DNA of 13,848 nucleotides from Pseudomonadota bacterium. GTDB lineage: Bacteria; Bdellovibrionota; FAC87; UBA2466. How positions within the stretch are numbered: position 1 is the first letter of the stretch; every line of letters begins with the position of its first letter. The notes beneath the pieces are model-generated. The model did not search any database. It was not told where the DNA came from and worked only from the letters and a program-made list of their open reading frames with translations. Position numbers and translations under genes: made by a program. This document shows positions 82 through 13,391 of the stretch, piece after piece. Location of the stretch: positions 1 through 13,848 of the forward strand of contig JAYUGC010000075.1 of assembly GCA_043767805.1 (NCBI GenBank). The letters are read 5' to 3'.

Positions 82-548
82 GCCCCGGGGAACGTAAAAG
101 TCAGGCACTCGAGCCCCTCACTGCGACCCGTACGAAGTTCCAGTTTTCGGGGGATGAGGAGATGGTTGCGATGTTCAAAGCTCTTCAGGATCGGTTTCGG
201 CGGAAGTTTCCTCAGGGGCGTATCGAAGACATCGTTAAGGAGTCGTTCAAGCTGCTTCTCGAGAAGAGTGACCCCGCGCCTGGTCCGGTGCGGAAGGTTC
301 ACGCCGCGCGGGCGAAACACACGCGGTATGTTCCTTCCGCCGTGAAACGAGAGGTTTGGCGCAAGGACGGAGCGCGCTGCTCCTTCGTTTCGAAAGCAGG
401 AGTTCATTGAGACGGCACCGCCTACCTCGAGCTCGATCACGTCGTACCGTGGAGTCTGGGCGGTAGCTCTCAAGCCGCTGATAACCTGACCGTTCGTTGC
501 CACGCCCATAATGCCTGGCGAGGCGGGGCGCTCAGGAAACGCGATTGA
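78..548 (+). pseudogene. HNH endonuclease-domain protein remnant: N-terminally truncated, in-frame TGA at 408-410
   Basis: Reads RYVPSAVKREVWRKDGARCSFVSKAGVH*DGTAYLELDHVVPWSLGGSSQAADNLTVRCHAHN. The DH..P...GG....NL...C..HN core of the HNH motif continues in frame after the TGA to a stop at 546-548. The TGA sits where this family normally has its second Cys. Confidence 0.8.
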
Positions 549-1305
549 GCTCCGTACTGGTTTGCGTGAGCTCTTCATTGAACGGTTTCATGTAGCGGGT
601 CAGGTGGCCCAAGATCTGAAGGTAGGCGCGCTTTCGCAAAAGAAAGTCGCTGTGAGAGAGCCCGCGCATTTCTTCCGTGCGGACGTCGGGAGATTTCATC
701 CATCCCTTGGGCAAGCGGGAGCAGCGAGGCGGACAGATCAAATCTTCTCGCGAATATAACGAGATGAGCGGAAAGCCCGCCGGATACGCGTTTCCGTTTA
801 GATGCCGGAGAAAGACGGAGCCGGGCATCAGTTGCGACAGACAGCGTGCCTTCAATATGAAATGGGTGAAAAAGCCAACTACGGCAATCCAAGTCCCGCG
901 ATGAGGCGTCGCCAGCGTGAGAAGGCCCCGACAGTAACGCGAGCCTCCAAGAAACTGAACATAGTAGCGAGCCACCAAGCCCCCCGCGGAATGTCCGACC
1001 AGAAAGATTTGGGAAGCCGAGACGTCTCTTTCTGACGATAGCTTCGAGATTTGCCGAGCCAGCTCCCGCGCGGGACCCGCGAAACCGATGCCGCCTTCGA
1101 GGCTCACCACCAGCACGTTGTAGCCATCTCGCTTCAAGCGGCGGCGAATCACGGAGAGCGAGCGGCGAGGCGCCGTGAATCCGGAAACGAGCACGATCGT
1201 CGGCGCGCCCGGATGAAGCGCGTTCACGTCTTTCCAACGAGCGACCCCAGCTCCCGGAAGGAAGTGAAATAGTTCTCGAAATAAACTTGGAACGCGGAGT
1301 CTCAC
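532..1305 (-). CDS. Alpha/beta-hydrolase (lipase/esterase family), 257 aa
   Basis: Nucleophile elbow LVGHSAGG, the TPHRGT motif, candidate Asp in EDLICP and candidate His in LSHSDF. GTG start preceded by GGGAAGG. No clear signal peptide. Confidence 0.85.
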   Translation of the reverse strand: MRLRVPSLFRELFHFLPGAGVARWKDVNALHPGAPTIVLVSGFTAPRRSLSVIRRRLKRDGYNVLVVSLEGGIGFAGPARELARQISKLSSERDVSASQIFLVGHSAGGLVARYYVQFLGGSRYCRGLLTLATPHRGTWIAVVGFFTHFILKARCLSQLMPGSVFLRHLNGNAYPAGFPLISLYSREDLICPPRCSRLPKGWMKSPDVRTEEMRGLSHSDFLLRKRAYLQILGHLTRYMKPFNEELTQTSTELNRVS

Positions 1306-1326
1306 GCCTTCCCGTTTCGGCTTTTT

Positions 1327-2037
1327 CTACGGGTTAGATGACTCGGGCGTTTGAGGTACCGGATTCGATGTGGGATTTTCTGTTTCCGCCGCGGGCTCGG
1401 GCGTGGGCTCCGGGCTAACTTCAGCGGGCGGCTCTGCTTGCGGCCCGGGCTCCGGCGCGGGAGGCGGTGGCTCGGGCATGGGGGGCGGCGTTTCCGGGGC
1501 CACCGTCGGCTTAGGCGGAGGAGGCATCGGCGGCGGACTCATCGCCCGCGGCGCCATGGGAAGCGCCGGCCTCGCCGACGCGGGTTTCGCGACGGGCTTC
1601 AATACGGGAATGGGCGCGATCGCCGGACGCTTCGGCACTTTCTTCTTCAAGAACGCGAGCACGACCGAGAGGCTCTTCGTGCCACCGATGGTCAGCGACT
1701 TCTGAACGGGGTCGTACTGCATGCGCATGCCCGTATAGACGTGCTTCAAGTTCAGATTATGGGTCTGGGGCGATGCGAAAACTTTTTCTAAAAAGGCGAT
1801 TGTGGAGGGATCTTCAAATTCCAGCCCGAACCCTTCATAACCCAGCGCCTTGAGTTGCTCGACCAAGCGATCATGGGGCTTGGGCGGGGCCGGTGGCTCA
1901 ACGACAGGCGCCGCCACGGGAGACGCTTCGGTCACGGGTTCCAAGACCGACGAAGGAGAGTCCGGCGAGCTAGCGCACCCCACTAAGAGGAGGCCCGCTA
2001 AAGCAACGCGTAAGTATTTTAAGGGTACGACGCGCAT
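1327..2037 (-). CDS. Pro/Glu-rich lipoprotein of unknown function, 236 aa
   Basis: Basic N-terminus, hydrophobic stretch and lipobox LVGC. A globular core of about 80 aa is flanked by Pro-rich linkers. Confidence 0.75.
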   Translation of the reverse strand: MRVVPLKYLRVALAGLLLVGCASSPDSPSSVLEPVTEASPVAAPVVEPPAPPKPHDRLVEQLKALGYEGFGLEFEDPSTIAFLEKVFASPQTHNLNLKHVYTGMRMQYDPVQKSLTIGGTKSLSVVLAFLKKKVPKRPAIAPIPVLKPVAKPASARPALPMAPRAMSPPPMPPPPKPTVAPETPPPMPEPPPPAPEPGPQAEPPAEVSPEPTPEPAAETENPTSNPVPQTPESSNP

Positions 2038-2046
2038 CAGCTAAAG

Positions 2047-2055
2047 ATCTTACCA
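2047..2055 (-). promoter_or_regulatory. Extended -10 promoter element (TGnTAAGAT) for the lipoprotein gene
   Basis: The minus strand reads TGGTAAGAT, ending 9 nt before the ATG at 2037. No Shine-Dalgarno sequence in between. Confidence 0.4.
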
Positions 2056-2094
2056 CAATCGCCCGATGCGTAAGCTGAGATAGGGGTTATTACT

Positions 2095-3348
2095 ATGCGT
2101 ACACTAACTCTGTACATCCTAGTGGCGGGGATACTCGCAACTGGGACAGGCTTTGCGGACGGGCAGATCGAGATGCGTAAGCATCGCTTCAGCCGGCACG
2201 ACAGCCAAGGCTTCGAACGTTTGGTCTTAGAGTTTAAAAATAACTCAGGAGCCGATTTGCCTTCGGTTCGGGTAGGAACCGACGGAACCGCCGGAGAAGT
2301 TACCATCCAAGTTGGAGACGCAGCTTTAAGAGGATCCATCCCCGAGTCCGAAGTTAACGATCGTTTCGTTCCCCGTTCCCATCTTTTAGGTCCTATCTCC
2401 GTCAGCAACGATAGTCCGCGTGGCGGCTTTACGATCCGTACCTTCTTGAAAGAGCCCCAAGCTCGCGTCGATGCGTTCTGGATCGACAGCCCGCTCCGTC
2501 TCGTTCTGGATGCGTATGGCACGGGCGGCTCACGTAACAACGCTTCCGTGCGAAGCCCCAAGAGACGCGGCTCTCGCCGTGGCTCGGGCAGGTACGCCGG
2601 CGACGTCATTTGCTTTCCGACCACCGCTTCCGTGGGCATGCAGGTCACCTTTCAAGCGACGGGCAAGCGAATCGATTCCATCGCCCTTCCCGTCGAAGGC
2701 GCCCGCAACGGCGACGAAGGCTCCGTGGTTTGTTATCCGAAGAACACGCAGCTCAGCGCTTCCATTTCCTTCGATCATTCCGCGGCCGACGGCGTGAAAG
2801 CCGTGAAGAACCGCCGCGTGAACCCGAATACTTATGACGACGGCGGCACCCCGGATCCAGTGCAAGCCACGCCCGCGGCTCGCCAGGAAATGCCCGTGGT
2901 CAAAGCGACGCCGAAGCCCGGGATGATGCTTCCGTCTCCGTCCGCACCGGTCCTTGGCGGAGCGCCCGCGAACCATCTTTTGAATAAGAGCCCAATCACT
3001 CTCGAGTCGCCAAAGGCGCTGTCTCTCTCGATGCCTTCGCCCGGAGCCGCCCCTAGCGGCTCTTCCGGCCTGTTGAGCTTGCCCTCCCCCGGTGGCGCCT
3101 CGAAACCGGCCGCGCCCATGCCCGTGTTGGGTCTTTCGCTTCCCGCCCCAGGACCCGCCCGCGCGCCGAGCGCGAGTGTCGCCGGAGCCTCACCGTTGAC
3201 TTTGCCCTCGTTGCCGCAGCCGGGCACCGGGGCTCTACCTGGAGCCGCCACTCCCGCCGCTCCTGCGGCTAGTGCGCCTTCGTTGAAGCTGAACCTTCCT
3301 CCGCCGCAGTCCGCGCAGCAGCTCTTGCCGCCGCTTTCGACAAAGTAG
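2095..3348 (+). CDS. Secreted protein with an N-terminal AMIN-like domain and a long Pro/Ala/Ser-rich C-terminal region, 417 aa
   Basis: Signal peptide (MRTLTLYILVAGILATGTGFA). HRFSRHDSQGFERLVLEF and FWIDSPLRLVLD match the paired R-x-V-x-[DE] strands of AMIN domains. AGGGG RBS upstream. Confidence 0.65.
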   Translation: MRTLTLYILVAGILATGTGFADGQIEMRKHRFSRHDSQGFERLVLEFKNNSGADLPSVRVGTDGTAGEVTIQVGDAALRGSIPESEVNDRFVPRSHLLGPISVSNDSPRGGFTIRTFLKEPQARVDAFWIDSPLRLVLDAYGTGGSRNNASVRSPKRRGSRRGSGRYAGDVICFPTTASVGMQVTFQATGKRIDSIALPVEGARNGDEGSVVCYPKNTQLSASISFDHSAADGVKAVKNRRVNPNTYDDGGTPDPVQATPAARQEMPVVKATPKPGMMLPSPSAPVLGGAPANHLLNKSPITLESPKALSLSMPSPGAAPSGSSGLLSLPSPGGASKPAAPMPVLGLSLPAPGPARAPSASVAGASPLTLPSLPQPGTGALPGAATPAAPAASAPSLKLNLPPPQSAQQLLPPLSTK

Positions 3349-3365
3349 TCGGCATGGGTTAGCGT
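3337..3365 (+). promoter_or_regulatory. Putative sigma70 promoter for rnr (TCGACA-17-TAGCGT)
   Basis: -35 at 3337-3342 and -10 at 3360-3365, ending 7 nt before GTG 3373. No SD present. Confidence 0.4.
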
Positions 3366-3372
3366 TTGCTTA

Positions 3373-5379
3373 GTGGGTAGGCATCGCAAGCGCAAAGAAG
3401 CAGTAAAGCATCTCAAGACGCGAAGGGAAAGCCGTCGCGCTAACCTTCAGCCTGTCCGCGCCCAAGCCGGGGCCCGCACCGGAAGAGTTCAAAAGAATCC
3501 CAGAGGCTTTGCTTTCATCCTGACCGGCGCACCCGGCGGCGATCAGTACGTTCCGCCCGAAGAAGCGCGGATGCTCTTAAACGACGATATCGTCGAATAT
3601 GCCATCGTGCGCGGCCAGGGCCGCCCGCGCGCCGAGATTAAAAAGATCGTCCGCCGCACCCAAACCGAAGTGGTGGGCCGCTTTGATTTCGACGGCGACC
3701 GGCTCTATCTCCTGACTCTCGATGGGGACGCTCACGTCGTGACGCCCGCGCCGCCAGACGCGCAACGGGAAGACTGGGCTCTCTGCAAGTTCGAGAAGTA
3801 CCCGACGAGAAATCATCCGGCGCAGGTGAAAGTCGTCGAGATCCTGGGCCCCGAGCTCGAGCCGAAGCACGACATCATGCTCACCTGCGCGCGCTTCGGC
3901 CTGCCGCGGGAGTTCACTTCCGAGACTTTGGAAGAAGCGTTCATGGGCAAGCTCACGGCGAGAAAAGAGATCCAGGAGCCCCAAAATCGCGTCGACATGA
4001 GAAACCTCCCGCTCGTCACCATCGACGGCGCGGACGCGAAAGATTTCGACGACGCCGTTTGCGTCGTCCGAAACGTGGAAGGCTCGCCCTTCATCCTCTA
4101 CGTTGCCATTGCCGACGTAAGCCACTTCGTGACTATCGGCACGTCTCTCGACAAAGAGGCCCAGCAGCGAGGGACGAGCGTTTATTTTCCGGGCACCGCC
4201 ATTCCCATGCTGCCCGAGGGGCTTTCCAACGAGCTTTGCAGTCTGATGCCGCAAGTGGATCGCCTGGCCTTCACGGCGGAGATTCACATGGACCGGGAGG
4301 GTAAGGCCACCTCCGCGAAGTTCTATAAGGCCATCATCAAGACGGCGGCGCGACTCACTTACGAGCAGGTCCAGGATTACTTTGACAAGCCCGGTGGCGG
4401 CACCGATCCCGTCACCGAGAAACTCGCCGACGCTTTAAAGTCGATGCGGGCTTTGTATCGGCTGATGATCCGCCGCCGTCACGAGCGCGGGACCATGGAT
4501 TTCGAGCTGCCCGAATCGAAAATCGTCGTGGACAAAGAAGGCGTGCCCACCCAGTGCGGCATCCGCGAGCGGTTCGAGGCCCATAAGCTCATCGAAGAGT
4601 TCATGATCGCGGCGAACTCGGAAGTGGCGAAACATTGCTTCCGCTTCCCTACCCTATTTCGCGTCCACGAGCCTCCCGCCCAAGGCGCTCTCGAGGAAGT
4701 GAACCAAATGATGAAGCACCTCGGCATTTCAAGGCGCATGGAGGAGCTGACACCGAAGGCCTTCTCCGAAGTCTTGGAGGCGACCAAAGGCTTGGCCGGG
4801 TCCGCCACTTTGCATCAGGCGATTTTGAGGCTCCAGAAACAGGCCAAATACGAGCCTGACCCGAAGGGTCATTTCGGCCTCGCCCTCAGGGACTATACCC
4901 ACTTCACCAGCCCCATCCGCCGGTACCCCGACTTGGTGGTTCATAGGCAATTAAAGAAGCTTCTCGAACGTGACCCGCTCACTGAAAAACCCAAGAAATC
5001 CGATAAGGAAGATGAGGAAAAGACCTCTCTCGCCGATGTCGGCGAACGGATGTCCGCCCTCGAGCGCCGGGCCATGGAAGCCGAGCGCTTCATCGTTAAA
5101 CGAAAGCAGTGTTGGTTCCTCAGGGAGCACCTGGGCGAAAGCTTCAAGGGCTCCATCGCGGGAGTAGTAGCCAAAGGCCTCTTCGTTCAGATAGAGCCTT
5201 ACGGTATCGAAGGGTTCGTGCCCTTGGAGACCATGGGCGGATTTTATGAATTCGACGAGAAACGAAATTGCTTCCGGGAACGCCCCGGCCACAAGATGCT
5301 CAGCGTGGGCGATCCCTTTGACATCATCATCGAGCAAGTCTCGCTCGAAGATCACCAGATCACTTTCGTTCCCAACTAA
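3373..5379 (+). CDS. rnr: Ribonuclease R (RNB family 3'-5' exoribonuclease), 668 aa
   Basis: Cold-shock domains (RGFAFI), catalytic TIDGADAKDFDDA, IEEFMIAAN, HFGLA..YTHFTSPIRRYPDLVVHR, and a C-terminal S1 domain. Confidence 0.95.
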   Translation: MGRHRKRKEAVKHLKTRRESRRANLQPVRAQAGARTGRVQKNPRGFAFILTGAPGGDQYVPPEEARMLLNDDIVEYAIVRGQGRPRAEIKKIVRRTQTEVVGRFDFDGDRLYLLTLDGDAHVVTPAPPDAQREDWALCKFEKYPTRNHPAQVKVVEILGPELEPKHDIMLTCARFGLPREFTSETLEEAFMGKLTARKEIQEPQNRVDMRNLPLVTIDGADAKDFDDAVCVVRNVEGSPFILYVAIADVSHFVTIGTSLDKEAQQRGTSVYFPGTAIPMLPEGLSNELCSLMPQVDRLAFTAEIHMDREGKATSAKFYKAIIKTAARLTYEQVQDYFDKPGGGTDPVTEKLADALKSMRALYRLMIRRRHERGTMDFELPESKIVVDKEGVPTQCGIRERFEAHKLIEEFMIAANSEVAKHCFRFPTLFRVHEPPAQGALEEVNQMMKHLGISRRMEELTPKAFSEVLEATKGLAGSATLHQAILRLQKQAKYEPDPKGHFGLALRDYTHFTSPIRRYPDLVVHRQLKKLLERDPLTEKPKKSDKEDEEKTSLADVGERMSALERRAMEAERFIVKRKQCWFLREHLGESFKGSIAGVVAKGLFVQIEPYGIEGFVPLETMGGFYEFDEKRNCFRERPGHKMLSVGDPFDIIIEQVSLEDHQITFVPN

Positions 5380-5391
5380 GGTGGCCCTCTC

Positions 5392-7071
5392 ATGAGAGTC
5401 ATTTCCACGGCGGCCGTCATTGGGACCGCGTTCAAAAACGTCGGCCGCGCATCTGAGATTCTCTCGGTCCTCGCGCGCCACGGGTTTGCCGATCTCGTTC
5501 AACGCATGAAGCTCGAACGGCTCGTGCGCTTTAAGACCGCCCAGGACACCGAGTACCACCAGATGCCCGCTCCAGTGCGCTTGCGCCGGGTGTTCGAGGA
5601 GCTGGGCCCGACCTTCGTGAAGCTCGGCCAGCTTCTCGCCACGCGCTCCGATCTGATCCCCGAGCCCTACGTCGAAGAGTTTGAAAAGCTTCAAGACAAC
5701 GTCGCTTCGGTCCCCTATGCGGACATCAAGCGCTTCGTCGAGAGCGAGCTGAAGGCGCCGCTGGAAAACGTTTTCTCGCATTTCGAGACCGAGCCCATCG
5801 CCGCGGCCTCCATCGGGCAGGTGCACGGCGCGATTCTAAAATCGGGAGAGAAAGTTGCCGTCAAGATTCAGCGGCCCGGTATCGAGCCGCTCATTCAAAA
5901 CGACGTTTCGATTTTGCGTGGGATCGCTCAGCTTCTGGAGCGTTACGTCCCTGAGACGAAGACTCTCAATCCGGTCGGTCTCGTCGAAGAGTTCTTCCGC
6001 ACCATTTTGTACGAGCTCGATTTTCAAGTCGAAGCCAACAACATCCGTCGCATCCGCAAAAACCTCGCGAACCTGACGAACGTCCGCGTGCCTATCGTGT
6101 ACGCGGATTTCAGCACATCGCGAGTCCTCGTCCTCGAGCGTTTCGAAGGCATCCGCTTCACCGACCGCGCCGGGATCTTGGCAGCGGGCATCAAGCCCGC
6201 GGACATCGTCACCGCGGGTAGCGACGCCTTTTTCCAGATGGTCATGCGGGACGGCCTGTTCCACGGCGACCTGCATGGCGGCAATCTTTTCGTCCTGCGG
6301 GATGGCAACATCGGCATCATCGATTTCGGCATCGTCGGACGGCTCTCCATCCGCGTGCAGGACAGCATCATCTCGATGTTCACGGCCCTCATCGACGAGG
6401 ATTTCGAGACGGTCGCCTCCGAGTACCTGGATCTTTGCCAGGCGACCGGCAACTCCGATCCGAGCGCGCTCCAAAAAGACCTGATGGACGCCATCTCCCC
6501 CTACATGGGAATGCGCCTCGGCCAAGTGAACGTCGGCAAGCTTCTGCTGCGCTCCACCGCTATCGCGGCCAAGCACAATCTCCAAGTGCCTCGCGAGCTG
6601 ATGCTTTTGTTCAAGGCCATCGTGAGCATCGAAGCGCTCGGCAAAAAGCTCGAGCCCGAGTTCGACATTCTCCAGGTGGGCTACCGCCAGGCGCGCTCGG
6701 TCATCACCCAGCGCTATAGCAAAGAGCGCCTGTTCAAAGATCTTCTCGTCATCGGCCGCGACGTGCAGCTGCTCGTCGAGCGCGTCCCTCGGGTGGGGAA
6801 ACGGTTCTTACGTCAGTGGGCGCAGAACGGTTTTGCGTTCGAGACCCGCAGCCCCGATACGGCCAGGCTCGCCAAAGCTTTTCGTCAATTCACGTATCAC
6901 ATGGTGGCGTGCCTTTTCTCGCTGAGCTTGACTGCTCTTGGCCTCGTCACCCTCGTCCTCGATCGCGGCCCCTGGGTATTCGGGGTTCCTGTCTGGTCGT
7001 TCCTGGCTTTTTTCGGCGCTTTCAGTATTCTGGGACAAGGACTCTGGACCTTGCGAAAGGCGAGACGTTGA
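5392..7071 (+). CDS. ubiB: UbiB/AarF/ABC1 family atypical kinase, 559 aa
   Basis: LGPTFVKLGQ (KxGQ motif), IAAASIGQVH, VAVKIQRP, FHGDLHGGN, IDFG, and two C-terminal TM helices. Family is certain; exact orthology to ubiB is not. Confidence 0.9.
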   Translation: MRVISTAAVIGTAFKNVGRASEILSVLARHGFADLVQRMKLERLVRFKTAQDTEYHQMPAPVRLRRVFEELGPTFVKLGQLLATRSDLIPEPYVEEFEKLQDNVASVPYADIKRFVESELKAPLENVFSHFETEPIAAASIGQVHGAILKSGEKVAVKIQRPGIEPLIQNDVSILRGIAQLLERYVPETKTLNPVGLVEEFFRTILYELDFQVEANNIRRIRKNLANLTNVRVPIVYADFSTSRVLVLERFEGIRFTDRAGILAAGIKPADIVTAGSDAFFQMVMRDGLFHGDLHGGNLFVLRDGNIGIIDFGIVGRLSIRVQDSIISMFTALIDEDFETVASEYLDLCQATGNSDPSALQKDLMDAISPYMGMRLGQVNVGKLLLRSTAIAAKHNLQVPRELMLLFKAIVSIEALGKKLEPEFDILQVGYRQARSVITQRYSKERLFKDLLVIGRDVQLLVERVPRVGKRFLRQWAQNGFAFETRSPDTARLAKAFRQFTYHMVACLFSLSLTALGLVTLVLDRGPWVFGVPVWSFLAFFGAFSILGQGLWTLRKARR

Positions 7072-7781
7072 AACGATTTTTTCTGCTGATGGCCTTCTTG
7101 CTGACCCTGCCGCTTTTCGCGGTGAACGGCGATGAGGCGATCCGGGCCCTGCTGCGAACGAACCTCAAGGGCAAGGGCGACTACATTCAGCGAAAAGTCG
7201 AGCGCATCGGCGACAAGACCATCCGTCTGGAGTGTTTCATTTCCATGGACGGGGACTTGAAGTGGTTCGGTAAAATCGCCACCGACGTTACCGACTACGG
7301 CTCCTGGCTCCTCAATAAGATAAACGACAAGCCGGACGGCGGCACTTACCCCGTGAAAATCATGGGCCTCGAAAAAGATCCCGCCGATCCCGTCAACGGG
7401 CTTTTCGCGTTGATGCGCCTGGATTTTCCGCTCATCAAAAAAGATCTGCGCAGAAAGCTCCGCTTCGTTCCTGACGCCGGAAAATCAAAAGTCGTCATCA
7501 ACGCCGAAATGCCGGACTCGACCGACGATATGATGAGCTCCGGCAAAGCAAAGATGGTTTTCTTTCAAGCCGACAATGAACCGAGCCGCATGTGGGGCTA
7601 TCTCGAGGGCAGCATCAAGATCCGCAACTGGCTCCTCTACGAAGCGCTTCCCACGGGCATCTTGAAGCGGGAAGCGGGCGAGCGCTTTCAGCAGGTCATC
7701 ACCAACTATCTAGGGGAAGAAAACCGCCGGATCAGATCGAGTCAAATCCCCAAAGAAAAAACGGCAACGCTGGGTGATTGA
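7068..7781 (+). CDS. Exported hypothetical protein, possibly START/SRPBCC fold, 237 aa
   Basis: TTG at 7068 overlaps the ubiB stop (TTGA) and opens a signal peptide (KRFFLLMAFLLTLPLFA). KIATDVTDYGSW resembles the D-x-x-x-Y-x-x-W motif of SRPBCC/START proteins. Confidence 0.7.
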   Translation: MKRFFLLMAFLLTLPLFAVNGDEAIRALLRTNLKGKGDYIQRKVERIGDKTIRLECFISMDGDLKWFGKIATDVTDYGSWLLNKINDKPDGGTYPVKIMGLEKDPADPVNGLFALMRLDFPLIKKDLRRKLRFVPDAGKSKVVINAEMPDSTDDMMSSGKAKMVFFQADNEPSRMWGYLEGSIKIRNWLLYEALPTGILKREAGERFQQVITNYLGEENRRIRSSQIPKEKTATLGD

Positions 7782-8787
7782 AAGCGTCCTCGCCGCCGAA
7801 AACCGCTTTGAGTAGGCCTTCGTCGGTGCCCGTCTCTAGGGTACCTTCCGCGAAAGTCACGCGCTCGTCGCCTTCCCACTTTGCTTCGATGCCGCTCGCT
7901 CTAAGAAACTCGCGGTAGGCCGCGAGCAGTTTTCCCCGGTCGAGTACTTTGACGAGGCCGAGCACGCCGTCCGTGGAACGGTCGGCGATTTGCCGCAAGG
8001 CCTCGAGCCGGTAGTGGTAGGGCGCAATCATGGTTAACGGCCGGTCGGAGAACGCGTGCCTCTGCACCCAAGCGACGTTGCGGCGAAGCTCGTCGGTCTC
8101 GCCTCCCCACTCGTGGATGAAGTCGGTGAAGTCGGCGCCCTTATTGATCGCGACATAACTCGTCACGCGGCCATCTTTTTCCGTGATGAAGACGCGGGCC
8201 TTGGGAATACGTAGTAGGGACTTCTGCTCTTCGAGCGAGCGGTCCAGATGGACATCGTGTTTCTGGTAGAGCCGCCACACGAGATGGGCATGGCGATCGG
8301 GATCGTACTCCATCGCACTGCCTTCGACCGCGGGAACGCTCTCAGACGTAAAGCGCAGATCCATTTCGCGGCCCGCGCGAAAGAAACCCAGGAGGCGGTA
8401 AAAATCAGGCTGGCCGGACCAGAGAACCGCGATGACGCAACCTTGGCGCTTGAGCTCCGTGACCGTCTCATTGAGAACGGCTTTGGCCATCCCCTGCCCG
8501 CGAAAATCCGGGCCGGTGGTGACCGAGCCGATGAGGCCCACTTTCAAACGCCGCTCGCCGTTTCGAAACTCGCGAATCAGAAAAGCGGCGTGAGACGCCA
8601 CTTGCCCGCAGCTTTCGATATAGAAGGACTCGCCGCCGGGAAATTCCCCAAAGAGCGACGGATATTCTTCCTTCAAACTGTGTTCGAGACCCGGCCGAAG
8701 CTGTTCGTCCAAAAACTCGATGAGACGCCTCCGGGTGTTATCCGCGGTGGTATCACTGTTTCCGTGCTGGAAGCGTTTGACGACCAT
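7732..8787 (-). CDS. GNAT N-acetyltransferase, Eis-like tandem-GNAT architecture, 351 aa
   Basis: ATG at 8787 with GGAGGT RBS (8792-8797). Acetyl-CoA motif A IGSVTTGPDFRGQGMA and FYRLLGF. A second degenerate GNAT domain (RVFITEKDGRVTSYVAI..IHEWGG) and an aromatic C-terminus (FFLWGFDSI) follow. Confidence 0.88.
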   Translation of the reverse strand: MVVKRFQHGNSDTTADNTRRRLIEFLDEQLRPGLEHSLKEEYPSLFGEFPGGESFYIESCGQVASHAAFLIREFRNGERRLKVGLIGSVTTGPDFRGQGMAKAVLNETVTELKRQGCVIAVLWSGQPDFYRLLGFFRAGREMDLRFTSESVPAVEGSAMEYDPDRHAHLVWRLYQKHDVHLDRSLEEQKSLLRIPKARVFITEKDGRVTSYVAINKGADFTDFIHEWGGETDELRRNVAWVQRHAFSDRPLTMIAPYHYRLEALRQIADRSTDGVLGLVKVLDRGKLLAAYREFLRASGIEAKWEGDERVTFAEGTLETGTDEGLLKAVFGGEDAFNHPALPFFLWGFDSI

Positions 8788-8803: not shown

Positions 8804-8833
8804 AAAAAACGGGTGCCCTTCGCGGGCACCCGT
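8804..8833 (-). terminator. Intrinsic terminator after the histone gene
   Basis: Perfect 10-bp stem ACGGGTGCCC (8809-8818) / GGGCACCCGT (8824-8833) with a 5-nt loop. A-run 8804-8809 gives a U-tract on the minus-strand transcript. Confidence 0.85.
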
Positions 8834-8858
8834 CTTAGAGCGTAAAACCAAAAATGGC

Positions 8859-9059
8859 TTACAAGTCGGCGGCGCGAAGGGTCTTTCTGCCGTTCGCTTT
8901 GGCGCGCTCGACGCCTTTCTTGATGGCGTCCGAAACGAGAGAGCTCAAGCCCGTCACGACGTCGGAAGAGCACTTCATCTTGTTGTTACGGACGAGGTCC
9001 TTCACTTTGGACTGGACCACGTACGCCACTTTGCTGCCGCCACTTTTCTTTTTAGCCAT
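8859..9059 (-). CDS. Bacterial histone (single histone fold, short-alpha3 class, Bd0055/HLp-like) with a Lys-rich N-terminal tail, 66 aa
   Basis: VVQSKVKDLV (alpha1), MKCSSD (loop 1), a long alpha2, then ERAKANGRKTLRAADL carrying the histone RxTxxxxD signature. Recalled Bd0055 segments (VVTSKVKKLI, KGVESAKADGRKTVMARDI) align closely. AAGGGGA RBS, own promoter and terminator. Confidence 0.92.
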   Translation of the reverse strand: MAKKKSGGSKVAYVVQSKVKDLVRNNKMKCSSDVVTGLSSLVSDAIKKGVERAKANGRKTLRAADL

Positions 9060-9104
9060 GGATTCCCCTTACTTTGGATACAGGTTGAAAAGGTAGCGTC
9101 GATC

Positions 9105-9123
9105 TTAGCGGTGGGATCGCTAA
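9105..9123. promoter_or_regulatory. Operator-like inverted repeat TTAGCG-N7-CGCTAA at the predicted histone transcription start
   Basis: TTAGCG at 9105-9110 and CGCTAA at 9118-9123, abutting the predicted -10. Confidence 0.35.
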
Positions 9124-9152
9124 ATGTTAAGTGCGTTTTCTTTGCGTGTCGA
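9124..9152 (-). promoter_or_regulatory. Putative sigma70 promoter of the histone gene (TCGACA-17-TAACAT)
   Basis: Minus-strand -35 TCGACA (9152-9147), 17-nt spacer, -10 TAACAT (9129-9124). Confidence 0.55.
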
Positions 9153-9232: not shown

Positions 9233-10141
9233 ATGAAATCGCTTCTAGCCTTCTTTTTGTCCGTCCTGCTCACGTCCGCCGCTTTTGCCGCGCCGCCCAC
9301 GGGCCGTTACAAAGCCGCACTGGACGCGCTGCAACAGCTTCAGCAGGCGCATTCCGATAAGTCTGAGCTCATCAACATCGGAACGAACGACGACGGCGTG
9401 GACATCATCGGCTTGCGCGTGAGCCTCACGCCGAAGCAGGTCGACCCCCGCAAGATCGGCCACCTCGTAGTCTCGACCCATCACGGCAACGAGCAGAAGG
9501 CGACAGACTTCACCCTCGCCTTCACCGAAGATTTGCTTCGCCGCTACGACAGCAGCCGCGCGCTCTACTCGAGTAAGCTCGCGGACATCGAGTGGACCAT
9601 CATCCCCGTGCTGAACGTCTCCGGCTATAATAGCAACTCCCGTTACGAGCACGGCCAAGACTCCAACCGCGATTATCCGGGCCCGTGCTTGACCGGCAAG
9701 GGCGGACAAGTAAAAAGCATCCGTCTCATGATGGACTTCCTGAATACTCGTCCTTTCGCGGCGAGCGTCACGGTCCATGGCTACATCGGCACCATGACGT
9801 TTCCCTGGGGCGTGAACACCACCAACACGCACAGCAACGATCACAACGCTTACGATCGCATGTTCGCGCAAGCGGCGAGCTTCAACAGCTACCGTTATGG
9901 GACGTCGACGGACCTCATCTATTCCGCGGAAGGCACGTTTGAAGATTACGTGTACTGGAAGCACGGCATCTGGTCTCTGCTTCTCGAAATGCGGGATGGC
10001 GGCGCAAACGACATCAAGACGACAGTTCCGGCCATCCAGGCCTTCTTCGATCAGGTGGACTCTTCACCGAGCACGAAGAACCAGATGACCGGCAGCTGCA
10101 TCCGCGGCGCAAATTACGCCAACATCAGCCGCCTCGACTAA
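9233..10141 (+). CDS. Secreted M14 family zinc carboxypeptidase, 302 aa
   Basis: ATG at 9233 after GGGGG, signal peptide ending AAFA. HGNE (HxxE zinc ligands), IIPVLNVSG, DSNRDY, VHGY (third zinc ligand), GTFEDY and catalytic LLEM. Confidence 0.9.
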   Translation: MKSLLAFFLSVLLTSAAFAAPPTGRYKAALDALQQLQQAHSDKSELINIGTNDDGVDIIGLRVSLTPKQVDPRKIGHLVVSTHHGNEQKATDFTLAFTEDLLRRYDSSRALYSSKLADIEWTIIPVLNVSGYNSNSRYEHGQDSNRDYPGPCLTGKGGQVKSIRLMMDFLNTRPFAASVTVHGYIGTMTFPWGVNTTNTHSNDHNAYDRMFAQAASFNSYRYGTSTDLIYSAEGTFEDYVYWKHGIWSLLLEMRDGGANDIKTTVPAIQAFFDQVDSSPSTKNQMTGSCIRGANYANISRLD

Positions 10142-10142
10142 A

Positions 10143-10164
10143 TCTTAAAAGGTACCTTTTAAGA
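10143..10164. repeat. Perfect 22-bp palindrome between convergent genes
   Basis: TCTTAAAAGGTACCTTTTAAGA is its own reverse complement and overlaps the stop codon at 10159-10161. Confidence 0.8.
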
Positions 10165-11160
10165 GCCGCCGGCGAAGCAGCGGAGGAAGTCGGGGCCTCG
10201 GAAGGGGCCCTGAGCAGGACTTCTCAAGATCACTTCCCAGAAGGGCTCTTCCGTCTTTTGCCCTAGGGTTTTGCCGAACTTCGCGCGCAAGGCGCTGTCG
10301 ATGAAGCCTTCGACTATGGAGGGCGTGCCCCGCTCGTAAGGGGTCGCGTGCATCAGCAGCGCGTACGCTTGCGCCGCTCTGTCGATGAACTCAGCTTCGG
10401 AAATGTGCTTGTCGTTGATGGCAAGAGCGAGTTCCTTCATCCCTCGATTTAGCGTGGTCACGGATTCTTCCAAAGTCGGATGAAAGATGATGATGATATC
10501 GCCGAAATTGATAGCGACGCTGCCCGGGAATTCTTCTCCGAACGCCTGAAAATTACGGGTCTCTGATTTCCGCTTTCGATTGTCAGCGCTATCGTTCGCG
10601 CGCTTCAAAGCGCGCTCGTAGAACGGAGCGTGCCGAAACGCCACGTGGTCAGGATTGATCGAGAGATAGTCTTTAGTGAGGACATCCCTTTCGACGTTTC
10701 CCAAAAAGTCCCGCGGCAACTCCGCTTCGGTTCGGGGATGGGCTACGCCATAACCTTCATCCTCGCCCCGGCTTTTCGCGATGGCAGCTCTCGTACGAGC
10801 TATGCCGTCCATCCATTCAAAAACCCGCGCTTCGGTGATGGGTTGCCCCCCGGCAAGCGCTCCCTGGATTTTTCCCGAGGCCTCTTCAATCGCTTTTCCC
10901 ATCGGCTCGACGAATTTGGGATCGAATGAGTAGCCATACTTTTTCTGCACTAGAAAAAGGGCATTCGCTTTCCCGGTCGCCGCCAAGAGCGAAGGAACGG
11001 GAGCGCTCTTGGCCCGGCTCGAGACGTTCCTCTTGAGGACGTTGAACCACTGCAAGGGACTGAAGGCGGAATAGAGCGGACAAGCGGAGGCGGAGGCTGA
11101 AATTAAGAGAAGAAGACTTGCCCTCCAAAACGGTGCCCGCATCCATCCAGGATAACGCAT
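10159..11160 (-). CDS. Exported hypothetical protein with a divergent Fido/AvrB-like C-terminal motif, 333 aa
   Basis: Signal peptide (WRASLLLLISASASA|C). Helix-loop-helix AQAYALLMHATPYERGTPSIVEGFIDSAL resembles the H-x-x-P-x-x-R-G-[ST] loop I recall for AvrB-like Fido proteins. The CDS is likely real; the family call is tentative. Confidence 0.6.
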   Translation of the reverse strand: MRYPGWMRAPFWRASLLLLISASASACPLYSAFSPLQWFNVLKRNVSSRAKSAPVPSLLAATGKANALFLVQKKYGYSFDPKFVEPMGKAIEEASGKIQGALAGGQPITEARVFEWMDGIARTRAAIAKSRGEDEGYGVAHPRTEAELPRDFLGNVERDVLTKDYLSINPDHVAFRHAPFYERALKRANDSADNRKRKSETRNFQAFGEEFPGSVAINFGDIIIIFHPTLEESVTTLNRGMKELALAINDKHISEAEFIDRAAQAYALLMHATPYERGTPSIVEGFIDSALRAKFGKTLGQKTEEPFWEVILRSPAQGPFRGPDFLRCFAGGS

Positions 11161-11176
11161 CCGACGGCTAAAAAGC

Positions 11177-11854
11177 TTAAAAGAGGGGCAGAACCAGAGA
11201 GAGCAAGGAGGCCGAGATAACCGGAATGGAGAAGTTATCGTCGATGGGCAAGGGACAGAGCTCGGCGAGCACGCTCACCAGGCCACCCACCAACGCGAGT
11301 CCAACCGCACGGTTACCCGGAAGCGCGAAAACAAAGAGCGCCACCAAGAGAGTCGCGAAAGACGAAATGGCGAAATTGGCGATAGCCCCTTCCCAGCTCT
11401 TTTTTCCAATGAGCTTGTGGCGGCCATAGAGACTGCCAACCATCGCGGCTGTCGGATCGCCCAAGGCGAGATAAAGCACGCTGAGCATCACCACCGGCGC
11501 CGGGAACAAGAGCACGACGAGAAAGAGTCCCAAAATGTAGAAAGAGTTGCCCGAGACGCTTTTCAATTCCTCGCGGCGCATGAGCTTACCGCAGTACTTG
11601 AGAGTCAAAGCATTCACGGCGGGGAACCGGAGACGAACCAAATCAATGGCGATGAACAAGCCGCCAATGCTGCCCAAAGCGAGAAGCGCTTGTTCGCGGG
11701 TCAGAATGAAAGCGTAAAGGCTGAAGCAAAGCAGGCCCATTAGCGCATGGTAAAACTTGCGCTCGAAATGCGGCAGAGACCGTTCTCGGTTTAAAACAGC
11801 TAGCTTCAATTGACGGATTCCTTCAAGACGGGGGGCGCTTTGCGTGTAAGCCAT
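11177..11854 (-). CDS. CTP-dependent diacylglycerol/phytol/dolichol kinase family membrane protein, 225 aa
   Basis: RKFYH, LGDPTAAMVG..YG, KKSWEG and PIDDNFSIP motifs, with multiple TM helices. Confidence 0.9.
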   Translation of the reverse strand: MAYTQSAPRLEGIRQLKLAVLNRERSLPHFERKFYHALMGLLCFSLYAFILTREQALLALGSIGGLFIAIDLVRLRFPAVNALTLKYCGKLMRREELKSVSGNSFYILGLFLVVLLFPAPVVMLSVLYLALGDPTAAMVGSLYGRHKLIGKKSWEGAIANFAISSFATLLVALFVFALPGNRAVGLALVGGLVSVLAELCPLPIDDNFSIPVISASLLSLVLPLF

Positions 11855-11886
11855 GGTGAGTGCGGTTCCTTTAACCAGTCTTTAAG

Positions 11887-11902
11887 AGCAAGTACCGTAC
11901 CG
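11887..11902 (-). promoter_or_regulatory. Putative sigma54 (-24/-12) promoter of the lipid kinase gene
   Basis: Minus strand CGGTACGGTACTTGCT: GG (11901-11900), 10 nt, GC (11889-11888), close to TGGCACG-N4-TTGCW. Predicted start about 11876, upstream of the AAGGA RBS. Confidence 0.6.
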
Positions 11903-11927
11903 AAACGAGAACCGGGCAAATGTTTCT

Positions 11928-11940
11928 TAACCAATTGAAA
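11928..11940. promoter_or_regulatory. IHF-like binding site
   Basis: TAACCAATTGAAA has one mismatch to YAANNNNTTGATW and lies at about -52 to -64 of the sigma54 promoter. Confidence 0.45.
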
Positions 11941-12114
11941 TCATTGATCTCTATTTTAAGGTCCGGCGCGTCGATTCTTAAAAACCGCGTAAAGAACTTC
12001 GCGATTATTGAGCGTGCGCGTCCAAACCAGGCACTAAAAGTTGTGTAAAGACAAAATAGCTTCTGATTCCAATGACTAGACGTGACGCATTGTAAAAATT
12101 CACGAGAGGGGTAA

Positions 12115-12134
12115 GTGCGAAATGAATTTCGCAC
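12115..12134. promoter_or_regulatory. Perfect inverted repeat GTGCGAAAT-GA-ATTTCGCAC, likely transcription factor or enhancer site
   Basis: 9-bp arms and a 2-nt spacer (too short for an RNA loop), in the divergent intergenic region. Confidence 0.6.
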
Positions 12135-12185
12135 CTAGAGGGAGTTTGTCGTCGGTTTTCCCGTGCTAAAATGAGAGCACCCTCC

Positions 12186-13391
12186 ATGCGCGTCTCCCTC
12201 ATCCTCTGGATCGGCTGGCTTTTCTGTGTCCCGGCACGAGCTCTCGTAGTCGAACCGAGCGCCGTGCAAGCGCAACTCGACCACGCGGTTCTCGTTTCGG
12301 AGATCGAAGTGCTCGACGTTTTGGGCTCGGCCGAGCGAGACGACTCGATCACCTATCAAGCCCGCGTTCGCCTGGATCACATTCTCGAAACGAGACCCGA
12401 CGGCGCTTCGTTGCCGGCGGAAGGCGACACGATCTTTCTCCGCGGGTTGGGCGGGGAAGCGGGAGGGCTCGGCGTCTACCTGAACGGCTACCCTCGCCCG
12501 CACGTCGGGCGTCGTTATCAAGCGTATCTCGCCCGAGATGGACGGGATTTCTCCATCACCGGATTCGAGTCCGGGCTAAAGCCCATCGACGGGCTCAGAG
12601 AGTTTTCCAGAAACCGCACCGACGGAAGTAACGGCGAGGGCGACGGGCCCTTCCTTCATTGGGGGAAAAATTATCTCCCCGTTCCCTACGCCATTTCCGC
12701 CGATACTTTCCCGGGACACGCCGACTACATCGAGGCCATCGATCGCGGGTTTCAAACGTGGCAGAATCAAGAACGATCGCGCATGACGTTTGTCGCCGTC
12801 GGCTGCTCGAAGGGCGCCCGCAATCTCAACGACGGCATCAACCACGTCATTCTCATCACGAAGAGCTGGCCTTTCGATACCGCGGCCATCGCCATCACCC
12901 GCAATTTTTATCTGGCGGGAGACTCGCCTCGCGCCGGCATGATTCTGGACTCCGACATTTTACTAAACGGCGTGAATCACGACTTCACGACCTTCGCGCA
13001 ATCGGGCAAGCACGACGTGCAAAACATCCTGACTCACGAAGTGGGGCACTTCATCGGACTGGGTCACGAAGTAACGCCGTTTAACAGCGACGCCGCCATG
13101 TTCGCGCAAGCCTCTCCGAACGAACTGAAAAAGCGGACCTTGAAGGCCAACGACGTGGGAGGGCTGCTCGCCGCGTATGAAGGCCCCGGCGAAAAGACGA
13201 CGCCCTCCCCTGGCCCGAGCTGCATCATCCGGGACAGTACCGCCGCGAGTTGTCTGGCGACTCATCAACCCGACACCCGTCCTCCGAGCCTGGGATGGAT
13301 GGTGGCGCTTGCCGCTCTGGCCCTCGTGGTTCGGCTCATCGGCCGCCGGGTCACTCGCCAGCCGGTTAAGATTCGCCGAGACGAGCCTTAA
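12186..13391 (+). CDS. Matrixin (M10-like metzincin) metalloprotease with a C-terminal membrane anchor; start at 12186 or 12171
   Basis: Signal peptide ending ARA, ILDSDILLN, HEVGHFIGLGH zinc motif (13035-13067), Met-turn AAMFA, and C-terminal Cys residues followed by a TM helix and an Arg-rich tail. TGCTAAAAT (extended -10, 12164-12172) overlaps the first ATG, which favours 12186. Confidence 0.9.
   Translation: MRVSLILWIGWLFCVPARALVVEPSAVQAQLDHAVLVSEIEVLDVLGSAERDDSITYQARVRLDHILETRPDGASLPAEGDTIFLRGLGGEAGGLGVYLNGYPRPHVGRRYQAYLARDGRDFSITGFESGLKPIDGLREFSRNRTDGSNGEGDGPFLHWGKNYLPVPYAISADTFPGHADYIEAIDRGFQTWQNQERSRMTFVAVGCSKGARNLNDGINHVILITKSWPFDTAAIAITRNFYLAGDSPRAGMILDSDILLNGVNHDFTTFAQSGKHDVQNILTHEVGHFIGLGHEVTPFNSDAAMFAQASPNELKKRTLKANDVGGLLAAYEGPGEKTTPSPGPSCIIRDSTAASCLATHQPDTRPPSLGWMVALAALALVVRLIGRRVTRQPVKIRRDEP

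Follow-up and report, generated by a model that had tools for sequence, protein, structure and literature searches.

Does a short tail rich in lysine, serine and glycine, placed ahead of the histone fold of a bacterial protein, bring that protein closer to the tailed histones of eukaryotes, or is it a usual attribute of the bacterial class to which the protein belongs? The question is raised by a small gene in a 13,848-nucleotide stretch of DNA from a member of the Bdellovibrionota (contig JAYUGC010000075.1 of assembly GCA_043767805.1), which was analysed as a whole and is called the window here. The original prediction, made from the letters and their translations, had identified the gene as a bacterial histone, described its first ten residues as a eukaryote-like tail of a kind unusual in prokaryotic histones such as Bd0055, and ascribed their resemblance to the K9-K14 region of H3 to composition rather than homology.

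The histone gene and its signals

The gene and the elements around it are the following:

8859..9059, minus strand: histone gene, 66 codons plus stop; alpha3-type and face-to-face (FtF)-like by phmmer and Foldseek matches to PDB entries
9030..9059, minus strand: N-terminal tail MAKKKSGGSK, codons 1-10, from the translation
9064..9070, minus strand: Shine-Dalgarno (SD)-like AAGGGGA in the sequence, 5 nt 5' of the ATG (9059-9057)
9102..9152, minus strand: two overlapping sigma-70-like matches, TCGACA-17-TAACAT and TTAACA-17-TAAGAT, as consensus matches only
8806..8836, minus strand: intrinsic-terminator-like hairpin (13 pairs) with a T-run, directly after the histone stop codon
9027..9029, minus strand: in-frame GTG (V11), an alternative start codon with no SD-like motif ahead of it (AGTGGCGGCAGCAAA)

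Translation of 8859-9059 on the minus strand gives a product of 66 residues with the N-terminus MAKKKSGGSKVAYVVQSKVK. The ten-residue tail lies at 9059..9030 exactly as predicted, consists of M, A, four K, two S and two G, and carries a charge of +4. The claims made for its start codon also hold: the SD-like AAGGGGA (9070-9064), separated from the ATG by a 5-nt gap, is a good ribosome-binding site, and no other ATG precedes the fold, with in-frame GTGs at V11 (9029-9027) and V14. In the orthologous loci of related Bdellovibrionota genomes the tail, 7-16 residues long and of a similar Lys/Gly/Ser/Ala make-up, begins with ATG-GCN behind an SD-like motif; the exceptions are L012, with an apparent GTG start, and L022, which is cut by a contig end, and the open frames of L009 and L011 have the same MA(T/K)K start. 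Eight of these loci, drawn from four genera (L006, L007, L010, L014, L017, L019, L020 and L021), lack any ATG, GTG or TTG between the tail ATG and helix 1, and for this reason the tail is almost certainly translated from the ATG at 9059, as judged from the comparison of orthologs.

Upstream of the gene, two sigma-70-like matches are observed against 0.2 expected from shuffles, and the TTAACA box and the 5' UTR are kept in the ortholog from the same genus. Since it has an SD, promoter-like matches and a terminator-like hairpin of its own, the histone gene looks like a self-contained unit. An Rfam search returned zero families anywhere in the window. A 214-nt contig from the metatranscriptomic library X13 spans 9015-9146 with 5 differences; because DNA can occur in metatranscriptomic libraries and the contigs show no ends, it is at most a hint of expression of the histone gene.

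Fold, class and homologs of the histone

The identification of the gene as a bacterial histone is borne out by phmmer searches against PDB sequences, which recover HBb/Bd0055 (8CMP/8FVX; E 3e-7), HTkC (9F2C; E 1e-4) and HLp (9QT0; E 1.5e-3). The matches comprise four relatives, all aligned over residues 9-66, with the tail outside every match. Pfam at E <= 1 yields neither of the histone families CBFD_NFYB_HMF and DUF1931, its sole match being LEF-9 at chance level (11.3 bits), and a search of NCBIfam with the protein likewise gives no histone family. An AF2 model built with 59 homologs (mean pLDDT 83.8) has helices at 16-25 and 33-55 and a one-turn (3-residue) helix at 63-65, displaying, in the model and in its Foldseek matches, the truncated alpha3 and shortened alpha2 of the alpha3 histones. 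Secondary structure begins only at residue 16 of the model, and the tail is predicted to be disordered, pLDDT staying < 50 over residues 1-5 and averaging 50 over 1-10. The top Foldseek match is HLp (9qt0_A; TMt 0.94, rmsd 0.8, ~30% identity), followed by HBb and HTkC, with TMt of 0.81-0.94 across the three.

The RxTxxxxD motif (RD clamp) is present as R58-K-T60-L-R-A-A-D65, and S17, R52, N56, R58, T60 and D65 do not vary across the 59 sequences of alignment A1. In the HMMER alignment R52, N56 and R58 correspond to R49, N53 and R55 of HLp, which, according to the text available from PMC12701072, are tetramer contacts conserved among bacterial FtF histones; the protein has, therefore, the FtF tetramerization residues at the expected positions. 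The Bd0055-type histones lack R48 and N52 of the FtF logo, and in HBb the residues aligned with R52 and N56 of this protein are S and D. Bd0055 was the wrong comparator for this tail, as the protein carries FtF tetramer residues that are absent from Bd0055.

A model of four copies of the protein scores 0.84, against 0.00 for the best control, a mark that 20 of 30 solved one-chain pairs and 1 of 23 single chains attain; because the HLp and HTkC tetramers have already been solved, this score may reflect likeness to them only. The runs agree in at least 98% of contacts, with a partner pLDDT of at least 84, and the predicted contacts comprise the histone-fold handshake and a second-dimer interface at 51-52, 55-56, 58, 62 and 64-65; residues 1-10 are outside every interface. 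On account of the conserved R52/N56/R58, of HLp as the closest model match and of the four-copy interface, we file the protein as a probable FtF-type alpha3 histone rather than a Bd0055-type dimer, a placement by residues and models rather than by the published CLANS clustering, and one to which the better sequence score of the dimeric HBb (3e-7) than of HLp (1.5e-3) is a counterpoint.

The histone query (P0001) was matched in 31 of 41 related genomes, its own included, among them 19 of 24 of the same family and 4 of 4 of the sister family; the named relatives are labelled as uncultured Pseudobdellovibrionaceae or Bdellovibrionota MAGs. For a count of tails, a core HMM anchored 269 of 270 collected homologs, from which 223 singlets of <= 100 aa starting with M were kept and doublets, longer proteins and fragments without M were dropped. 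Tail length was taken as the number of residues that precede the alignment column of query residue 12, in 118 near homologs and in 105 cluster representatives (50% identity):

Median residues before position 12: near homologs 9 (IQR 8-10); representatives 9 (IQR 3-15)
At least 8 residues: near homologs 93/118; representatives 58/105
At most 4 residues: near homologs 8/118; representatives 41/105
Net charge +2 or more: near homologs 80/118; representatives 41/105
Net charge 0 or below: near homologs 11/118; representatives 56/105

In the 118 near homologs, K accounts for 33%, A for 18%, G for 14% and S for 10% of the residues in tails that are 6 or more long, and across the homologs the tail spans the range from none (MAE-LLVV..., many of them archaeal) to > 30 residues of K/A/G. 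Judged from these sequences, the tail is more than chance. The alignment of orthologs that had been proposed as a check on its conservation was run, and it points to a tail conserved in composition and in kind, that is as a short, basic and flexible segment, and not in sequence. Length and charge vary widely among the 105 representatives, so that the fold family, taken as a whole, does not require the tail.

Among the best-scoring representatives, many (P0121, P0123, P0124, P0127-P0129 and others) are doublets: 114-128 aa long and with two stretches of histone fold each, they are pseudodimeric relatives of the singlet histone. A second, paralogous family of small histones (...WYLEQAAKRAKANGRKTVR..DF) occurs in the relatives L025, L029, L030, L027, L028 and L031 and carries basic tails of its own, such as MAKKKME... 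and MAKKAKGSKKSSKSKGGEM; no copy of it was found in the window's genome with query P0001 at E <= 1e-3.

The likeness of the tail to H3 is indeed merely compositional, as had been proposed: the K-x4-K spacing becomes K-x3-K (KSGGK) in the ortholog from the same genus and is missing in most homologs. Homology to H3 K9-K14 was accordingly rejected, the spacing not being conserved even within the genus. The description of the tail as eukaryote-like did not stand. An H3-like tail would be long and bear conserved motifs as modification sites; this one has ~10 residues, its lysine spacing shifts within the genus, its length and sequence vary, and the exact KSGGSK is found in 7 of the 270 collected homologs. 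Nor is the tail unusual. Schwab et al. 2024, in the portion available (PMC11390915), report that bacterial FtF histones commonly bear tails, which are mostly positively charged; Hocher et al. 2023, as excerpted (PMC10627809), describe most bacterial singlet histones as being without long tails. The excerpts of the bacterial histone literature consulted yielded no study of what such a tail does or of its modification in a bacterium, and no sign emerged that the present tail is modified. The tail, then, is real; within its class it is not a rarity, and it is not eukaryote-like in any specific way. Such tails having already been reported as common in bacterial FtF histones, it is an ordinary further example of the known basic tails, from one more lineage (Pseudobdellovibrionaceae-like MAGs). 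It does not speak for a connection with the histone tails of eukaryotes, and the current picture stays as it was.

In the literature as excerpted, bacterial histones are a young field, with experimental work confined to HBb and HLp. The locus offers this field a well-supported example of a tail, with a start codon secured by comparison, and its many orthologs, whose tails run in graded lengths from 3 to ~16 residues within the order and are longer elsewhere, could help in planning experiments that delete or swap the tail.

Possible roles of the tail

We favour, with moderate confidence, a role for the tail as a disordered polycationic arm of an FtF histone that adds non-specific contacts with DNA, its A-rich codons at the same time keeping the initiation region open; this rests on the sequence comparisons and the models. 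By the usual rule the Met would be removed before Ala2, leaving AKKKSGGSK as the mature tail, a probably flexible arm of ~10 residues and charge +4 ahead of helix 1. The fold would dimerize, and two dimers would probably join via R52, N56 and R58 into a ring-like tetramer, as suggested by homology and the model, which may bind or wrap DNA in the way shown for HLp. The four tails of such a tetramer would then most likely make non-specific phosphate contacts and neutralize charge, resulting in higher DNA affinity or compaction. In the mRNA, the A-rich Lys codons would keep the ribosome-binding region unstructured, as would suit a highly expressed gene.

The last of these steps can also be turned into an explanation of its own, namely that the tail codons are kept mainly for the mRNA, with an A-rich, unstructured start boosting initiation of an abundant protein and the peptide itself having little function. 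The initiation region from -35 to +35 (9025-9094, minus strand) has a folding energy of -8.1 kcal/mol, where shuffles give -14.66 +/- 3.02 (z +2.17), and each of the 200 dinucleotide-shuffled versions folds at least as well as the native one; such an open region is as expected for a highly expressed gene. The ratio of AAA to AAG among Lys codons is 33:12 in the tails (73% AAA) and 52:77 in the gene bodies (40%) of 16 loci, whose kinship and consequent non-independence mean that the count overstates the support for an mRNA-level cause; in the other genes of the window the ratio is 64:104. An MA start is seen in 161 of the 223 singlet homologs and an MAK start in 64 of the 118 near homologs, and MA or MAK is a common start for abundant bacterial proteins. 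The AAA bias and the open initiation region are as compatible with a cause in the mRNA as with one in the protein. Yet A-richness alone would also admit Asn, Thr, Ile and Glu, whereas K makes up 33% of the tails and the net charge is at least +2 in 80 of 118 near homologs; moreover, GC-rich Gly codons (GGC GGC) are retained within the tail, and the same family includes homologs without a tail, both archaeal and bacterial (MAE/MGD-LLVV...). We consider it unlikely that the mRNA is the main reason for the tail, and an mRNA-level layer is in any case compatible with the polycationic arm.

Other readings of the tail draw on its genomic surroundings, which include the following features:

7732..8787, minus strand: Eis-like GNAT acetyltransferase, 351 aa (PF13527, E 6.9e-12; PF00583), a context gene
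9233-10141, plus strand: secreted-looking M14 zinc carboxypeptidase, divergent from the histone gene
532-7781: neighbours with family-wide order, namely an alpha/beta hydrolase, two unknown proteins (one Pro-rich), RNase R, an ABC1 kinase and an unknown protein
10159-13391: neighbours beyond the histone, also with family-wide order, namely two unknown proteins and an M10 matrixin-like peptidase
G000:C68:2941-3441 (L002 1492-1995), minus strand, in the same genome: ZZ-type histone, 167 aa, with a Cys-rich zinc-finger-like N-domain and an alpha3 histone fold, QAARQDGRKT

The GNAT gene is the next one downstream on the histone strand, starting ~70 nt after the histone stop codon, and its product has distant PDB matches to the Eis-like GNATs 2ozg, 3n7z, 4my0 and 2hv2. 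A precedent exists in Eis, which, according to the excerpted text of a review (PMC6456759), acetylates > 30 lysines of the mycobacterial nucleoid protein MtHU. By analogy, the tail could be a regulated modification site, the lysines or the new N-terminal Ala being acetylated by the downstream GNAT in a manner that tunes DNA binding. Of 16 orthologous loci from the same family, 12 have the two genes side by side, and the pair stays together where M14 is lost or DNA has been inserted beyond the GNAT. Against this, a strong terminator-like hairpin lies between the two genes, the GNAT being behind it. Synteny across the family extends over a block of ~12 genes that runs from the hydrolase to the M10 peptidase, and the adjacency of histone and GNAT is for that reason not specific. 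The GNAT is missing beside the histone in the remaining 4 of 16 family loci and is present in 0 of 4 sister-family loci; the pairing of M14 with the histone is kept into the sister family, further than that with the GNAT. Five genomes that keep the tailed histone, namely G004, G025, G026, G027 and G028, 79-96% complete and with no positive control among them, gave no match to this GNAT query at E <= 1e-5. Beside the histone genes of other lineages, a scan that took in 58 of the 84 flanking ORFs with 130 aa or more found no GNAT, the sole match coming from a same-family locus; the 26 ORFs left out belong to the near-duplicate loci L064, L065, L073 and L074 or are overlapping or edge ORFs. With block synteny, five genomes without a match and no GNAT among the flanking ORFs scanned in other lineages, the tests of the linkage were mostly negative and it was rejected; acetylation of the tail by this enzyme is improbable.

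An extension of the same idea would make the tail (AKKK...) the substrate of a small chromatin-marking system, in which it is either acetylated by the adjacent GNAT or read, at its free N-terminus, by the ZZ-domain histone of the same genome, just as eukaryotic ZZ domains read the N-terminus of H3. Matches to the ZZ histone occur in 32 of 41 relatives, including genomes without a match to the P0001 histone; as ZZ matches are near-universal in the family irrespective of the tail, their co-occurrence with it is uninformative. We regard such a system, suggested by analogy, as highly improbable; if real, it would amount to a writer/reader-tail pair in a bacterium. The match in several relatives is confined to the ZZ part, in a short stand-alone ORF (query residues ~18-82).

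Finally, it is scarcely credible that translation begins at an internal GTG with the tail as 5' UTR: in-frame GTGs at V11 and V14 are present in both the window and the same-genus ortholog, but they have no SD-like motif ahead of them and a good SD sits 5 nt before the ATG, the eight loci named above offer no alternative start, and residues 11-15 lie in the modelled dimer interface, which a V14 start would be predicted to truncate. The changes within the tail of the same-genus ortholog point the same way, being confined to a synonymous substitution in one Ser codon and the loss of 3 nt in frame; its SD-ATG spacer has indels of 1 nt and 4 nt. Given the position of the SD and the orthologs without an alternative start, the internal GTG start was rejected.

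Comparison with known histones and their tails

Among solved structures the closest system is HLp of Leptospira perolatii (PDB 9QT0-9QT2), a bacterial FtF alpha3 histone of the same fold (TMt 0.94, rmsd 0.8), with which this protein shares the truncated alpha3, the RD clamp (R58...D65 here), the conserved R/N/R of the tetramer, the same interface as predicted in the four-copy model, and a short N-terminal extension. The two differ in that their identity is only ~30% (phmmer E 1.5e-3), in that the extension of HLp is not Lys-rich in its aligned part (...EKDTLIV), and in their neighbourhoods, the HLp gene lying beside SMC and MAP genes, according to the HLp paper as available (PMC12701072), and the present one beside an M14 peptidase and a GNAT. 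In the HLp-DNA crystals the first six residues of HLp are invisible, as stated in the same text (PMC12701072), and the nearest solved relative is therefore one without an ordered contact between tail and DNA.

HBb/Bd0055 of Bdellovibrio bacteriovorus (PDB 8CMP, 8FVX), a 'bacterial dimer' alpha3 histone from the same phylum, is the best PDB sequence match (E 3e-7, ~43-44% identity) and has the same truncated alpha3 fold and the GRKT loop. It differs in having S and D at the positions of R52 and N56, and is a strict dimer according to the excerpted PMC12701072. Only ~4 residues (MAEV) precede the fold of HBb, whereas this protein has 8 more, with a charge of +4. Removing HBb's four N-terminal residues left its wrapping behaviour unchanged in a FRET assay, as reported in the part of Hocher et al. 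2023 that was available (PMC10627809).

The tails of eukaryotic H3 and H4 and of Asgard archaeal histones resemble the present one in being disordered, rich in Lys, Gly and Ser, and N-terminal to the histone fold. The N-terminus of H3 is ARTK, and the likeness to it of the mature end AKKK is superficial only. The differences are that the present tail has no conserved motif, its K-x4-K spacing being lost within the genus; that it has no known writers, readers or erasers; and that the fold which bears it is of the alpha3 family and not of the nucleosomal family. Eukaryotic tails are also 'long', in the wording of the available text of Schwab et al. 2024 (PMC11390915), as against ~10 residues here. 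The FtF tails described in that work (PMC11390915, as excerpted) are bacterial, N-terminal and positively charged, with no sequence conserved across lineages; the tail of this histone is the same in each of these respects and shows no essential difference from them.
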